40,161 bases of DNA from an uncultured Eubacteriales bacterium (GTDB lineage Bacteria > Bacillota_I > Bacilli_A > RF39 > UBA660), in contig ONXO01000035.1 in the NCBI GenBank assembly GCA_900321795.1, forward strand, positions 1 through 40,161. The letters run 5' to 3'. The position numbers and the translations under genes are program-made. Under the pieces are notes generated by a model. That model saw only the letters and a program-made list of their open reading frames with translations, had not been told where the DNA came from and made no database searches. Shown here piece after piece: positions 9,413 through 15,191 of this stretch (its first letter is position 1; each line of letters begins with the position of its first letter).

Positions 9413-9606
9413 TACTTGTTCCTCCAATCATTAATGTTATTTTGAACAATATCACAAGGAATCATATATCCAACTTTATAATGTCCCAACAATGTAAATG
9501 ATCCTGCAATATTTATACCTGCTATTTTCATATTTTCAGTTAATGCAACTCCACCACTATTACCTTGCTGCATATACGCAAAAATTGTATCCAAGAGAAA
9601 ACTCAC
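9412..9606 (-). pseudogene. C-terminal remnant of a trypsin-like (S1) serine protease
   Basis: Contains the active-site serine motif GNSGG but lacks the upstream His/Asp part. The ORF only opens at a GTG inside the module-A hairpin, and stop codons lie upstream. Confidence 0.6.
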
Positions 9607-9809
9607 AAACCCTTATATTTACTGGGCTCACGAGCATTATTTACCATGACATTTCTTATATTTCTTACCACTGCCACATGGATGCGATATTTCAAGCTTC
9701 TGAGACTATAAAACTCTTTAAAACCCTTATAAAACCTCACAAATTGGCTTTTGAGAGCTTTTGAGAGCGTCCAAGAACTCTACCAAAGCGTATGTAAAAA
9801 CGTATGTAG
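9601..9809 (-). repeat. Cassette-boundary module, copy A (divergent, outer)
   Basis: Parts in coordinate order: an interrupted hairpin (9601-9634); the SEC-C tail [14 protein letters not shown]-stop (9637-9681); the core CCACTGCCACATGG (9668-9681); a unique arm with the tandem CTTTTGAGAG x2; then CGTATGTAAAAACGTATGTAG (9789-9809). Confidence 0.85.
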
Positions 9810-9825
9810 AATTTAATTTTTAATA

Positions 9826-10308
9826 CTATAAGTTTAATAGTTCTTTTTTCTTTTGATCAAATTCTTCTTGGCTAATTGCACCCATGTCAAGTAATTCTTT
9901 TAACTCTTTAACTTGCTCGATTGGAGTCTTAACATTTTGAGCAATCGTATTTCCACTATTTTGGTTGGCATTAAATTCTTCAATATAATTTTTAATTTCC
10001 TCAGCATTAGCATTAGCATTTTTTGGATCAAGATTAAATGTAACTGTATTCTCATCTTTTAACGCATCTCTTAAACCATTTTTGCTTTCTCTACTACCAG
10101 ATAATACAAATTGAATATATCCAGCAGTCATACCGCATTTTTTCAATTGCACAGCTGATATTTGATTCAATAAAATAGTTTTTTCACCTTTCAATCCAAA
10201 ATTCATAAAAGATCTAACACCTTTTCTAATAATTGATAGTTTGTTACCATCAATTATTACTATTGTATTTCCTGTACCTAAATTTTTAAATAAATATTCT
10301 TTTTTCAT
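9826..10308 (-). CDS. bPH (YokE/DUF4429-like) domain protein with a C-terminal SHOCT domain
   Basis: 160 aa. The C-terminus VKELKELLDMGAISQEEFDQKKKELL is a typical SHOCT motif. The N-terminal ~100 aa look like a bacterial PH-like domain. Confidence 0.7.
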   Translation of the reverse strand: MKKEYLFKNLGTGNTIVIIDGNKLSIIRKGVRSFMNFGLKGEKTILLNQISAVQLKKCGMTAGYIQFVLSGSRESKNGLRDALKDENTVTFNLDPKNANANAEEIKNYIEEFNANQNSGNTIAQNVKTPIEQVKELKELLDMGAISQEEFDQKKKELLNL

Positions 10309-10368
10309 AACATCAACTCCTATATTAATTATACCATATTTTTCCTATTTTTCATATGCCAACAATAA

Positions 10369-10941
10369 TTACATGAATTCATGTATTATCTCATCAAATT
10401 CACGTATATCATTTCTGATTTTTTCAAGATTATACTCTTTATCACGTTTAAAATATAAATCATTATTTTTATCAATTGGATACCTAAAGCGATATGAATC
10501 ATTATCAATTAAAATAAATTTTTTTACAATCCCATCTAAAGTTTCTACAAAATAATATGAATCTTCACCATAGTAATCCGACTCCTCTTCCATTAATTTT
10601 TGCTTAAGCCCAGGCCAAATTTCACTAAGTCTATGATTACTAAGTAAATTAACTTTCATATCATAGTATTTTTTATTATTAATGTCAAAATATACGTACA
10701 TAGCTTTTATTATTAACTCTAAATAATGGCGGAATAAAAACATGACCGGATATATGTTATACTCTTCCTCAAGTTTTATGCTTTCTATTCTAAATCCTTC
10801 CATCAAAGATGACAACTGCGAATATCTGTTATCATCTAGCAATACATCAGCCAAAATCATGCCCGAATTATAATATCCTGCAGCATAAGTAAAAAGTATT
10901 TCTTTATTACCATTATGTGAAATGTGAATCATTTTTGTCAT
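10369..10941 (-). CDS. Hypothetical 190-aa helical protein (cassette gene, no confident family)
   Basis: Clean ORF with a GGTGG Shine-Dalgarno. Conserved-looking patches are FRHYLELIIKA, SNHRLSEIW and SYRFRYP. Confidence 0.6.
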   Translation of the reverse strand: MTKMIHISHNGNKEILFTYAAGYYNSGMILADVLLDDNRYSQLSSLMEGFRIESIKLEEEYNIYPVMFLFRHYLELIIKAMYVYFDINNKKYYDMKVNLLSNHRLSEIWPGLKQKLMEEESDYYGEDSYYFVETLDGIVKKFILIDNDSYRFRYPIDKNNDLYFKRDKEYNLEKIRNDIREFDEIIHEFM

Positions 10942-11062
10942 AAAACCACCTATTAATATTATATCATAAACTTTTATAGTCCTTGTCTTGTACTGTAGGG
11001 ACAGTGATCATTTTCTTCGTAAAACCTTATAAATAAAGGCTTTATTAGGCTCTAAATAATGG

Positions 11063-12833: not shown

Positions 12834-12844
12834 ATTAAAATCTT

Positions 12845-13459
12845 TTATTTAATATCAAATTCTGCATAAATAGTATATGCTTGTGAATCTGGACTCTTTG
12901 ATTTTCTTAAGTCACTTTTAACTAATCTGTATGTTCCACTTTTTAATTCGCCATATCCTAAAGACCAATCAACAATAAACTCTTTCTCTTCATGTGCTTT
13001 CAAAGAATAAACTATTGAATTCCATGTTAATGGTTCTCCTGTCAATGTATCGATTTCTTTCTATGCTTGATTTTCAAACTTTTCAATAGTATATGTTGGA
13101 CCATAAGCATATTCTTCATCTGTAGTGTTTTTTATTATAAATGACGCTCCTTTTGTTGTTCTTGTATCTTCTTTAATTTCTATTAAAACACTACCAACAT
13201 TTTTTTGCGCTGGACTTTCATCATGTTTTAATCTTTCATCAGCATTTATATTTCCACCAACTCTAATTCCTAAAATTTTAAGTTCCCATCCATCTTCATA
13301 ACCTGTAAATGAAATTTCAGTTGGTGTATGAACTATAGTATACTTATACAAAATAGCTTTATATTCTGTAACACCATTTTTCCAATGAGTAGGTATTGGT
13401 ATTAACATTAAAACAAAAATCACAATTGCAACAATAATTAATATTTTTTTCTTTTTCAT
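12845..13459 (-). pseudogene. Secreted or membrane-anchored Ig-like beta-sandwich protein interrupted by one in-frame TAG
   Basis: The 132-aa and 66-aa ORFs share one frame (13459-13045 = 414 nt) and are split only by TAG at 13061-13063 (...FENQA-stop-KEIDTLTGEPLTW...). Joined, they would give about 204 aa. Confidence 0.65.
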
Positions 13460-13495
13460 ACAAGCACCTCTATAATCATTATATCATATATGTGA

Positions 13496-14971
13496 TTATT
13501 CAAACAAGTCGAAGCCTCTCTTTGTAACTTTAAATACTTCACCTTTATAATTTGTACCTCTAATATAATCATTATTAACTAATAATTCCATAGAATACTC
13601 CATATTTGCTTCCTCTTTGGCATTAGCTGGTGTAAAAGTTTTAGTACCACATTGGATAGTTAGTCCTATTATTGTTTTTGATTTAATAATTATTCCATCA
13701 CCATTTACTGCATTTTGTAGCATATATAAAGCGAGTTCATTCAATCCATTTTCCATAATTGTATTATTATATTTTATAATACTTTTATTTTTTGATTCAT
13801 CAATATTAGCCATTTCTTTCACATCTTCAATTATTTCTGAAACGTTATCATATCTATTACTATGATTTCTATCGACACATTTTTTAACAATATTTGAAAT
13901 TGCATTATTAGTTAATTGTAAGCTTTGTTTCCCAGTAAAAATATAAAACAAAATAATACCTATAACATATATTTCATTTTTAATATTATAATTTTTAAAA
14001 TCAACTAATGTATCGTCAATTATTGTTCCTTTTATTTCAGAACCAGTTGATGTTAGATCAGAATTTTTTTCTTTAATTAGGCCAAAATCAGAAACCTTAA
14101 TAGAAATTAAATCATCATCGTATTGCTTGATTAAAATATTATTGAAACTTATATCTCTATGCAATATCTCTTTAGAATGTAAATATTGAATTGCTTTTAA
14201 GAATTGTAATGCAATACTTTTTCTTTTATTAAAATTTAATTTTTCTTTATTTCCATTATATAATTCATAATACTTTTTAAGTGTAAAATCACAATATTCC
14301 ATAACATATGCATCATCATCTTCTAAATATTTATATGCTTTTAGAAGATATGGATTATTTAACTTATTTAAAAAATCAAATTCCTTTTTAAATCTTCCAA
14401 GCTCTTTATCGGTAAATTCCTTCTTTAATTTCTTATATGCATAAAATTCGTTATAAAACTCATCTTTATACCTATAAACATCCGCATATGCACCGCTACC
14501 AATTATTTTAGTTTTAAAATTTGTTTTATATGTATTTGAATTTACCGTTATTTCATTATTCATATTGAAAATTGTATCATATTTTATTAGATTAAATCTT
14601 TTATAATCATTTGGAATTGTACTACCACCAGATGATGATAAAAAACTATCACAATATTTTAAAAACGCTTCATAATCTGTATTAACCGAAAAAGCCAAAT
14701 TGGTATTCTTTAACATTAGTTTTAATTCGTTAATTGTTTCAATTAAAAAAATAAGGCTTCTGCTTTCATCAGCATTAAAATGATGATTAGTTTTACTCTT
14801 ATCATTCATAAAGCCAATTAAACTATTTAAATTTTGATGTAAAAATGAAAAAATATTTTTAACTCTTTTATCATAGTTATTATATAAATCTAAATATAAT
14901 TTTGAAAAGTTAAAATTTGCAAGTTCATCGCTTAATATATTATTTAGTGCTAAATCGATATTTTCTACCAT
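13496..14971 (-). CDS. Hanks-type Ser/Thr protein kinase domain flanked by unknown N-terminal (~150 aa) and C-terminal (~100 aa) domains
   Basis: Catalytic motifs present: GSGAYADV (G-loop), AYKKL (Lys), HRDISFNN and DFG. The likely start is ATG at 14971 (GGTGG upstream). No TM segment or signal peptide. Confidence 0.8.
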   Translation of the reverse strand: MVENIDLALNNILSDELANFNFSKLYLDLYNNYDKRVKNIFSFLHQNLNSLIGFMNDKSKTNHHFNADESRSLIFLIETINELKLMLKNTNLAFSVNTDYEAFLKYCDSFLSSSGGSTIPNDYKRFNLIKYDTIFNMNNEITVNSNTYKTNFKTKIIGSGAYADVYRYKDEFYNEFYAYKKLKKEFTDKELGRFKKEFDFLNKLNNPYLLKAYKYLEDDDAYVMEYCDFTLKKYYELYNGNKEKLNFNKRKSIALQFLKAIQYLHSKEILHRDISFNNILIKQYDDDLISIKVSDFGLIKEKNSDLTSTGSEIKGTIIDDTLVDFKNYNIKNEIYVIGIILFYIFTGKQSLQLTNNAISNIVKKCVDRNHSNRYDNVSEIIEDVKEMANIDESKNKSIIKYNNTIMENGLNELALYMLQNAVNGDGIIIKSKTIIGLTIQCGTKTFTPANAKEEANMEYSMELLVNNDYIRGTNYKGEVFKVTKRGFDLFE

Positions 14972-15040
14972 GTAACCACCCAATTAATATTATATCATAA
15001 TAAACCTAAATAACCTTGAATTTGCCTCAAATCCACATAA

Positions 15041-15191
15041 AAAAACGTATGTAAAACGTATGTAGAGGCACTTTTTTGAAAAAAATTACAACTTTTTAGG
15101 AAAAGAAAAAGCCTCGCAATCCCTTTATTTACGGGGCTTTACGAGACTATTTACCATGACAGTTTTTATACTTCAATCCGCTGCCACATGG
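15041..15191 (-). repeat. Cassette-boundary module, copy D (outer, truncated exactly at the core)
   Basis: Parts in coordinate order: ACGTATGTAAAACGTATGTAG (15045-15065); ATTACAAC; hairpin plus T-run; the SEC-C tail PCGSGLKYKNCHGK-stop (15147-15191); and the core CCGCTGCCACATGG (15178-15191). It is about 94% identical to copy C up to the core and unrelated beyond it. Confidence 0.9.

Follow-up and report, generated by a model that had tools for sequence, protein, structure and literature searches.

Gene cassettes bounded by copies of the secA 3' end in an uncultured bacterium, and their probable relationship to phage-type attachment sites

Introduction

A stretch of 40,161 nucleotides (nt) from an uncultured Eubacteriales bacterium of the RF39 lineage (GenBank assembly GCA_900321795.1, contig ONXO01000035.1; that whole stretch is called 'the window' below) contains three small sets of accessory genes that are separated and bounded by four copies of a composite intergenic module, each of which carries the end of a SEC-C-type reading frame that possesses no start codon. 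The locus raises the question of what such modules are, how the gene sets came to lie between them, and whether those sets move as units. An original prediction, made from the letters of the window alone, had placed two possibilities side by side: a cassette platform serviced in trans, and integration, one event after another, into a SEC-C gene at its 3' end. When related sequences are compared, these two proposals appear to turn out to be one mechanism: the gene in question proves to be secA, and both cassette arrays and prophages of relatives are found at the same site. The modules are, with high probability, attachment (att) sites of integrative elements that use a phage-type tyrosine integrase to insert themselves at the 3' end of secA; the comparative data likewise support a platform of cassettes that is presumably mobilised in trans.

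The four modules of the window

A search of the entire window with a 45-nt degenerate pattern for the tail gave exactly four matches, all on the minus strand, where none would be expected by chance, and confirmed the existence and placement of the four composite modules (A to D). All four share the same orientation, and each contains a frame of the form PCGSGxKYKxC(H/C)GK-stop that lacks a start codon and remains open for only 22-30 codons (ending in ...FTPCGSGLKYKNCHGK in module C, within which a shorter stretch reads ...TPCGSGLKYKNCHGK, and in ...LYPCGSGLKYKNCHGK in module D, with a corresponding shorter stretch ...YPCGSGLKYKNCHGK). Every tail is followed on its 3' side by a hairpin and a run of U residues (-12.7 to -20.1 kcal/mol, z = -3.0 to -5.9), in keeping with the terminator originally proposed.

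Alignment of the modules (94% identity between C and D over 125 nt, and 79% between B and C over 169 nt) yields three architectures: B and C are complete, consisting of a left arm, the tail, the terminator, the motif GTTGTAAT and right-hand boxes, while D is without a left arm and A is without a right arm. With at most one mismatch allowed, the window contains 15 copies of the box ACGTATGTA, of which 13 lie at module edges; the arm boxes are found approximately 110-130 nt from the tail on each side, and all of them belong to one family, the CTACATACGT family. The tail, hairpin and boxes ascribed to every module were therefore found, but two further components had been assigned too widely: TTGTA boxes are restricted to the left arms of B and C (where some of them are simply Cys-Lys codons of a decayed frame, FCKNC.../NCKYC...), and GTTGTAAT is present in B, C and D and absent from A.

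Parts of the four modules (E1 to E3 are the cassettes that lie between them; P and P' are the arms to the left and right of the core):

15041-15191, minus strand: module D, attL-like, with ordinary DNA after an SDR gene as its left flank
15147-15191, minus strand: core tail of module D (45-nt pattern match), read from 15191 to 15147, with the terminator hairpin at about 15148 to 15110 and GTTGTAAT at 15092 to 15085
15045-15053 and 15056-15064, minus strand: P' arm box pair of module D
12571-12834, minus strand: module C, attP-like hybrid of the P arm of E3 and the P' arm of E2
12712-12834, minus strand: P arm of module C (of E3), with boxes at 12814-12822 and 12826-12834 and TTGTAA repeats
12667-12711, minus strand: core tail of module C (45-nt pattern match), read from 12711 to 12667, followed by the terminator and by GTTGTAAT at 12612 to 12605
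12575-12583, minus strand: single remaining box of the P' arm of module C (of E2)
11063-11347, minus strand: module B, attP-like hybrid of the P arm of E2 and the P' arm of E1
11225-11347, minus strand: P arm of module B (of E2), with boxes at 11327-11335 and 11339-11347
11180-11224, minus strand: core tail of module B (45-nt pattern match), read from 11224 to 11180, followed by the terminator at 11174 to 11143 and GTTGTAAT at 11127 to 11120
11063-11100, minus strand: P' arm of module B (of E1), in which the boxes form a palindrome
9601-9809, minus strand: module A, consisting of the P arm of E1, the core and the terminator hairpin
9682-9809, minus strand: P arm of module A (of E1), with boxes at 9788-9796 and 9800-9808 and two copies of GCTCTCAAAA
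9637-9681, minus strand: core tail of module A (45-nt pattern match), read from 9681 to 9637, followed by the terminator hairpin at 9635 to 9601

No Rfam family matches the module (a single microRNA match, far below threshold, was spurious), the window contains no tRNA or tmRNA gene, and module C has no DNA match among GenBank phages. A scan of the window for promoters returned 49 sites where 43.6 were expected, a result that is uninformative, in DNA of 27% GC, as to the separate promoter originally ascribed to each gene set.

The tail corresponds to the 3' end of secA

To identify the tail, one genome per species was scanned with the tail pattern, which produced 103 loci. In approximately half of them the tail is the genuine 3' end of secA (encoding a protein of about 830 amino acids, aa), in metagenome-assembled genomes that are labelled Bacilli, Erysipelotrichaceae, Mollicutes or Tenericutes, and Clostridium; the remaining loci contain start-less copies, in which the residue before the shared proline is not the cysteine found in SecA. 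The intact gene with the same ending and the same terminator, for which the original prediction had recommended a search, is accordingly found to be secA, and the core of the module is identified by this comparison as the last 14 codons of that gene. The repeats are made up of the target's own 3' terminus, and the resident copy of the gene remains whole.

Tails of secA and start-less tails alike are nearly always followed by a terminator and then, approximately 30 nt further on, by a pair of direct repeats with 11-nt spacing. The sequence of those repeats differs among loci: in addition to the CTACATACGT family of the window, the families TTAGATACC, TTAGATACGT, TTAGATACAG, TTAGATAAG, TTAGATCA, GGAGCCA and others were found. 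At least about ten arm-box families have this one core in common.

Cassette arrays at secA in relatives

Application of a relaxed tail pattern to the fetched loci (which are designated by L numbers below) demonstrated that arrays like that of the window, with co-oriented cassettes of 0.9-4.2 kb, are common downstream of secA. Up to five tails are found within 8 kb, and 58 tail-to-tail spacings range from 0.26 to 4.2 kb, most of them falling between 1 and 2.5 kb. The start-less tails are always co-oriented, and lie 3' of secA wherever secA is present in the same locus. A box pair is found at the expected place after 47 of the 57 secA ends that are followed by at least 250 nt, as compared to 22% of random 150-nt windows, and a start-less tail lies within 4.5 kb of 16 of the 28 secA ends for which at least 3 kb of downstream sequence is available.

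Within 80 such cassettes, ORFs (open reading frames) that read in the direction of secA outnumber those in the opposite direction by 132 to 4; one gene is present in 41 cassettes, two in 30 and three in 9. The cargo is diverse (128 proteins fall into 104 clusters), and the same cargo is found at differing array positions and behind differing box families. It includes GNAT acetyltransferases, APH-type phosphotransferases, NUDIX hydrolases, S51 peptidases and methyltransferases, as well as kinases, NERD nucleases, methionyl-tRNA synthetase, RhuM and several candidate defence proteins. The methionyl-tRNA synthetase, in a cassette of L128, is a full-length protein of 544 aa (Pfam tRNA-synt_1g, E = 7e-131; reverse-strand coordinates 11012-12646, corresponding to 2185-3816 of the plus strand), and may be a spare or inhibitor-resistant copy. 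In two further loci, ORFs beside or within arrays (L057, reverse-strand 1-534; L086, reverse-strand 6402-7355) contain the stretch ...LTQGSPTSAYISNLVMKDFD..., which to the eye looks like a reverse-transcriptase motif of the retron type.

Prophages and integrases at the same site

Only a handful of loci contain any integrase (in the genome loci, homologues are limited to L065, L068 and the insertion sequence of L063). A 40-kb prophage contig from IMG/VR (L114 and L113) occupies a secA tail. At its one end (L114), the secA tail and terminator are followed by two copies of TTAGATACC and then, on the opposite strand, by a gene for a 376-aa integrase, after which come ORFs for CI-like and Cro-like repressors and other phage-type ORFs; at its other end (L113), two copies of TTAGATACC precede approximately 110 nt of phased GCCCCCAAAA-type repeats, which in turn precede a start-less tail. 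These two ends have the arrangement of textbook attL and attR sites, as judged from their sequence.

An element that is closer to those of the window (L138) was found through a metagenome scan for the window's own box pair. In this locus the secA tail and terminator are followed by AAAAAGTTGTAATTTTTTTTCAAAAA and CTACATACGTTTTACATACGT, and then at once by a gene for a 384-aa integrase (PF00589), a CI-type repressor (a helix-turn-helix with an S24 peptidase domain) and further phage-type ORFs. Its P' arm matches those of the window with 89% identity over 90 nt (module D), 90% over 81 nt (module C) and 89% over 66 nt (module B), such that the window arms are homologous to the arms of an integrase-bearing element; the P arms of TTAGATACC-family phages similarly display 83-86% identity to cassette P arms. 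In the window, the paired arm boxes flank the core with the same spacing as at the attL of L114, the attR of L113 and the attL of L138. The comparison of sequences thereby documents both prophages that share core and arms with the modules and homology between the arms of cassettes and phages, and a recombinase near such a site, for which the original prediction had recommended a search, is found in relatives, in the form of tyrosine integrases at L114 and L138. Smaller elements that encode an integrase are found in tandem with cassettes (L128 and L158); full prophages and integrase-bearing elements of 8-10 kb both use the secA site. The prophage integrase genes read in the direction opposite to that of cassette genes.

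Several additional observations concern integrases and arms. A different integrase of 426 aa, which combines Arm-DNA-bind_4, SAM-like and catalytic domains, is oriented towards a tail in L145 (9838-11453), and the 33-codon open frame of that tail still has the CPC of secA. The locus may represent a second type of element, with its integrase at the P-arm end. The left arms contain phased A-tract repeats between boxes and core, in the form of GGGCAAAAAA and GCCCCCAAAA in the phage (L113, 12120-12225) and of the two copies of GCTCTCAAAA in module A (window 9735-9760), and such repeats could bend DNA intrinsically. A tyrosine recombinase of 282 aa in L063 (400-2362 region) was considered as a cassette recombinase and rejected, because the 380-aa ORF that follows it was read by eye as an IS91-type transposase; that ORF carries the motif CxxC...SCRNRHCPxCQ, and the pair occupies the cargo position just after a CTACATACGT right arm. 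Six IMG/VR matches to the CTACATACGT box pattern were also set aside as unrelated, having no secA tail nearby. The L138 integrase has no GenBank phage relative above 28% identity.

The unit of mobility

The box families indicate the unit that moves. A cassette that travelled as a circle with its own attP would be expected to have boxes of one family at its start (P') and its end (P), and the two arms of a junction, which come from different cassettes, could differ. The family at the start of a cassette is the same as that at its end in 35 of 38 cassettes, whereas the families on the two sides of one junction are equal in 3 of 39 (Fisher p = 6e-15; the counts include some redundant metagenome copies, and the contrast is still large). 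In L039, for example, four consecutive cassettes carry ACC, ACGT, ACC and AAG boxes, and the two ends match in each of them. The two arms of one mobile unit therefore share one specificity, and because boxes match within cassettes and not across junctions, the mobile unit appears to run from core to core and to include its own attP; for the same reason the modules are to be read as hybrids, with the left arm belonging to the upstream cassette and the right arm to the downstream one.

Gain or loss of such a unit can be seen in two nearly identical genomes, L124 and L163: their identity is 96.6% through secA and 97.9% through a cassette that both contain. Between secA and that shared cassette, L124 has a further cassette of 3.3 kb with another box family, and the displaced start-less tail of L124 equals the secA tail of L163 at all 45 nt; the cassettes past the shared one also differ. 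The break falls at the tail edge, and the comparison favours the left edge of the tail as the exchange point. A polymorphism of the kind that the original prediction had suggested looking for, namely a whole cassette with its breakpoint at the module, is thereby documented in relatives, alongside the covariation of cassette arms; within the species of the window none was found among the contigs recovered by exact-protein look-up.

Additional comparisons illustrate that an arm and its adjoining region travel with changing cargo. The P arm of E1 displays 93-98% identity, over 126-131 nt, to arms in L153, L053, L062, L157 and L004, and in other metagenomes, arms with 94-98% identity to those of E1 carry unrelated cargo; the 5' region of E1 (approximately 120 nt) is 94% identical to positions 1851-1961 of L062, which again precede unrelated cargo. 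The P arm of module B is 90-100% identical to arms in L145, L139, L155 and L029, and the P arm family of module C is found in L134, L139, L145, L154 and L155 as well.

Proposed mechanism and its alternatives

In the mechanism that we propose, an incoming element would supply its own copy of the last 14 codons, such that secA stays intact, and the displaced original end would survive as a start-less tail. The conserved start-less coding tails would accordingly be displaced or spare ends of secA, and the frame would still look selected because any copy can end up finishing the gene. The paired CTACATACGT boxes, at approximately 110-130 nt from the core, would be the arm-type binding sites of the integrase, presumably contacted by its N-terminal domain, and strand exchange would take place inside the 45-nt tail. 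Each of E1 to E3, with its ends set at the two cores, would close into a circle that carries a complete attP. These cassettes encode no integrase, and would most likely integrate and excise with the integrase of a resident or infecting phage that targets secA, such as that at L138; both catalysis by phage integrases and current mobility of the cassettes are what we infer from the comparisons above. The cassettes may also travel between cells by excision together with a neighbouring prophage, and such composite excision would also explain their small size.

A number of observations weigh against this interpretation, and most of them concern the window itself. Its 40 kb contain no secA (an 841-aa ORF encodes valyl-tRNA synthetase); the array is therefore not adjacent to secA, and module D instead abuts an SDR gene. 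No att site was found after the SDR gene in relatives, in which the contexts of that gene were varied. The window likewise contains no integrase, as originally stated and as found again by a motif scan and by phmmer, and no excisionase, and the helper integrase is for that reason hypothetical for this genome. Several of the window's boxes are degenerate, and one arm has a single box. All contigs of the species that were recovered by exact-protein look-ups (5-7 per look-up) contain the same three cassettes in the same order, and no circular form or empty site was observed. Beyond the window, Arm-DNA-bind_4 is a weak match, below the Pfam cut-off, in the related integrase of L128, and is not detected in that of L138 itself; and pairwise statistics of tail variants gave weak signals, with a slight association to the P' family for the terminator and the right half of the tail, and to neither arm for the left half.

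Several alternatives to integration at secA were considered. The cassettes might be decayed prophages or integrative elements that entered secA and lost their integrase by deletion, as described for classical cis-mobilizable elements (CIMEs; PMC5704250). Prophages and 8-10 kb integrase-bearing elements share the site and lie in tandem with cassettes, the A end of the window array is visibly truncated, and E3 holds a broken ORF, all of which would be expected from decay; however, a fragment of an integrase or phage gene is kept in none of the 80 cassettes, the cassette genes are co-oriented (132 to 4) while the prophage integrase reads the other way, the sizes cluster at approximately 1-2.5 kb, and one arm and 5'-region backbone (87-98% identity) is found with unrelated cargo across metagenomes, which points to the spread of cassettes as such. 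We consider independent decay unlikely. We advance, tentatively and at somewhat less than an even chance, the proposal that the cassettes are a distinct, self-propagating miniature class of element, consisting of one to three genes on a standard backbone of attP, terminator and 5' expression region, that parasitises the integrases of secA phages and may be carried off along with them.

Homologous recombination between the tail and terminator repeats (45-130 nt), for example after DNA uptake, could in principle spread repeats and cassettes without any integrase: the repeats are long and alike enough for RecA (as for C and D, above), most arrays have no integrase nearby, and the window array appears to be fixed. 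Exchange within tails, however, would not keep the arm families matched in cassettes (35 of 38, versus 3 of 39 across junctions), would not conserve pairs of boxes that flank the core at distances like those in phages, and leaves the first insertion of each new cassette without explanation; it is quite improbable. It is scarcely credible, finally, that the module has no connection to mobility and is a dispersed or regulatory repeat of the REP or MITE kind, or that the ACGTATGTA pairs are operators of one factor. Upstream of each gene set the boxes do form pairs, spaced by 11-12 nt, that resemble sites for an activator or repressor, but boxes also lie 3' of the last gene in each cassette, and the same boxes flank prophages beside their integrase genes. 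A generic dispersed repeat, which the original prediction had named as one outcome that would refute it, is not what was found: no copy of the module exists elsewhere in the window, all copies being co-oriented within the array, no Rfam family corresponds to it, and the start-less tails of the fetched loci are invariably co-oriented and 3' of secA where secA is present.

If the cassettes do represent such a distinct class, they would constitute an integron-like, secA-anchored system of gene capture in which a single core serves approximately ten or more orthogonal arm specificities. Such a system, not yet described, would be present in many uncultured Bacilli of the gut and rumen. Integration at secA would in any case imply a large hidden pool of shuttled genes in those organisms, in which integron-like diversity is generated from phage att sites, and whose cargo includes enzymes of the GNAT and APH types, an additional methionyl-tRNA synthetase, kinases and nucleases, and candidate systems of anti-phage defence. 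Because most arrays have no recombinase nearby, they are easily mistaken for ordinary chromosome. Should the arm-box families be truly orthogonal, they would furnish a toolkit of integrase and attP pairs for low-GC Firmicutes, all directed to one universal attB in an essential gene.

Cargo of the window cassettes

Cassettes and genes of the window:

12835-15040, minus strand: cargo of E3; mobile unit, core to core, 15191 to 12712
13496-14983, minus strand: E3 kinase gene, 495 aa, Ser/Thr kinase domain (Pfam Pkinase)
13061-13459 and 12845-13045, minus strand: E3 Big_14 Ig-like ORF (Pfam), split by a stop
11348-12570, minus strand: cargo of E2; unit 12711 to 11225
11386-12477, minus strand: E2 gene, 363 aa, repeat-rich, with an N-terminal hydrophobic stretch and 18-nt tandem repeats
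9810-11062, minus strand: cargo of E1; unit 11224 to 9682
10942-11062, minus strand: conserved 5' region of E1, up to the start codon (by sequence comparison)
10369-10941, minus strand: E1 gene of unknown function, 190 aa
9826-10308, minus strand: E1 DUF4429/SHOCT gene (Pfam)

The three co-oriented sets of one or two genes, and the proteins attributed to them, were thus recovered by Pfam much as first described, including an Ig-like ORF of the Big_14 family that is broken by one in-frame stop. That stop (TAG, 13061-13063, minus strand) divides the ORF of E3 into parts of 132 aa and 66 aa, and is not a sequencing error specific to the window, because a 132-aa gene is also called at that position in independent metagenome contigs. 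The kinase domain of the neighbouring gene matches the defence-kinase models PD-T4-6, Stk2 and mad6 of PADLOC (with the match limited to the kinase domain), and cassettes of L101 and L039 encode relatives of the kinase's C-terminal domain; PADLOC gave no match for the other window proteins tested. The E2 gene contains ten tandem 18-nt units (11963-12214) that encode a repeat of the (S/G)NTNT(E/G) type; in metagenome contig L001 this gene is annotated with a length of 369 aa, versus 363 aa in the window, and the difference of 6 aa corresponds to one 18-nt unit. E2 also has, among the three units, the most degenerate arms on both sides. The 190-aa protein of E1 is 74% identical to a cassette gene product in the secA array of L044.

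Surroundings and history of the array

Features at the A end of the array:

9580-9636, minus strand: P'-arm remnant of another box family (TTAGATACC type), ending after 57 nt and overlapping the hairpin of module A
9412-9606, minus strand: ORF of 64 aa, C-terminal fragment of a Trypsin_2 serine protease, with homology covering 9423-9580

The P'-arm remnant is 91% identical to the P' arm of the prophage attL in L114 (935-991), and has further matches in L117, L064 and L163. Because the beginning of this TTAGATACC-family arm breaks off into the protease fragment, a deletion appears to have taken part of a further element at the A end. The truncated protease gene noted at the edge of the array is indeed the C-terminal piece of a Trypsin_2 protein, and displays 73.6% nucleotide identity to positions 9318-9475 of L106, within a 273-aa Trypsin_2 gene. 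In that locus, the closest relative found, the protease gene lies downstream of secA, and the order is secA, three genes, the 273-aa Trypsin_2 gene, a 69-aa gene and an orthologue, 82% identical, of a 296-aa protein that is encoded beside the window array; in L158, a homologue of the window's HTH-VanZ gene comes after the last tail. On the evidence of these alignments, the A side of the array resembles the region downstream of secA in L106 and L158.

On the D side, the array joins ordinary DNA 80 nt after the SDR gene, and the 84 nt to the left of the D tail have no match in the fetched loci that were searched (L003-L172). In the closest relative (88% amino acid identity), a 57%-identical paralogue of the 296-aa gene lies 15 nt past the SDR gene. 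A rearrangement that was broken at the left edge of the core, or the movement of a multi-cassette segment to this position, are possible histories of that side. The window array is probably an old and now sedentary copy: it lies apart from secA, its A end is truncated, its boxes are partly degenerate, and it is the same in all contigs of the species that were recovered. No compositional island or anomaly marks the array. Across the whole window the GC skew stays uniformly negative, with a GC content of 22-31%, and all 38 ORFs of at least 90 aa that look like real genes are on the minus strand.

The 296-aa protein mentioned above (window 8537-9427) belongs to no Pfam family and has 2,696 homologues; in relatives its gene is found in very different surroundings, downstream of secA, after the SDR gene, or among other small accessory genes (L106-L112, L126 and L167), and may itself be mobile cargo.

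Comparison with known systems

The closest described relatives of these cassettes are CIMEs, in which integration genes are absent and att sites are kept, and which accrete in tandem at the 3' end of a gene, as reported for islands related to ICESt1 and ICESt3 of Streptococcus thermophilus and for streptococcal integrative and mobilizable elements (IMEs); they are described as arising when ICEs (integrative and conjugative elements) or IMEs decay, and are usually single (PMC5704250). The cassettes of the window carry no integration or transfer genes and have an att site on each side, and by definition qualify as cis-mobilizable, or CIME-like, elements. Cassettes of this kind share with CIMEs a tandem position beside elements that encode an integrase, at a conserved gene's 3' end; their direct repeats include the gene end, and the integrase of a neighbour is the proposed mobiliser. 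Unlike CIMEs, they are cassettes of 1-3 genes and 1-3 kb, always co-oriented, on a conserved backbone of arms and 5' region, and form arrays of up to five or more, with at least about ten arm-box families, temperate-phage partners and secA as the target. The 80 cassettes contain no remnants of integration, transfer or phage genes and combine a conserved backbone with variable cargo, which makes their independent decay from ICEs or IMEs less likely.

Tycheposon islands of Prochlorococcus present a second parallel, in that repeated integration by tyrosine recombinases at one gene end pushes older elements inward (bioRxiv 10.1101/2020.12.28.424599). Partial copies of the target are scattered through such islands, and their cargo is adaptive or defensive, as it is here; tycheposons differ in having tRNA or tmRNA targets and an integrase of their own, in that pieces without an integrase are treated as remnants, and in the host clade and integrase family involved.

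Among Firmicutes, tandem units at the 3' end of a housekeeping gene are also familiar from staphylococci, in which the staphylococcal cassette chromosome (SCC), pseudo-SCC elements and composite islands form arrays at the end of rlmH (orfX). Their units are bounded by a direct repeat that contains the last codons of the gene, and some of them lack a recombinase and depend on those supplied in trans. SCC elements, however, employ large serine recombinases (Ccr), are not known to have arm-type sites, and are far larger, at several to tens of kb, in addition to their use of another target gene. The IMEX arrays at dif or pdif modules of Acinetobacter plasmids, which rely on the host XerC and XerD proteins and on 28-bp dif-like sites, resemble the present arrays as integrase-less units in tandem between sites, with a recombinase encoded elsewhere; the sites described here differ in having arms that are specific to phage integrases and a core that codes for protein.

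The likeness to integrons, from which the original prediction had taken its description, holds for the arrays themselves: small, co-oriented and diverse cassettes of one or two genes, without a recombinase, each of which has one site and would form a non-replicating circle. It does not extend to the machinery. No IntI with an adjacent attI was found, the window having no tyrosine recombinase and the integrases at the site in relatives being of the phage type, and no attC was seen, the modules being approximately 260 nt long with a coding tail and with a terminator as their only strong hairpin (no attC model was run). The sites are instead double-stranded att sites of the phage type, of approximately 260 bp, with arm boxes, a gene-tail core and secA as the anchor, and the cassettes appear to bring their own upstream region rather than to depend on a common Pc promoter. 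Copies scattered in either orientation, as in REP and MITE repeats, were not seen for the module in the window or among the start-less tails of relatives.

In the full-text literature, no published description of secA-tail cassettes was found among the matches listed. The general principle, the tandem accretion of elements that lack an integrase, is already described; what appears to be new is the use of the secA 3' end as target, the miniature and uniformly oriented cassettes in which a common backbone carries changing cargo, the length and frequency of their arrays, and the presence of many arm-box families on one core.

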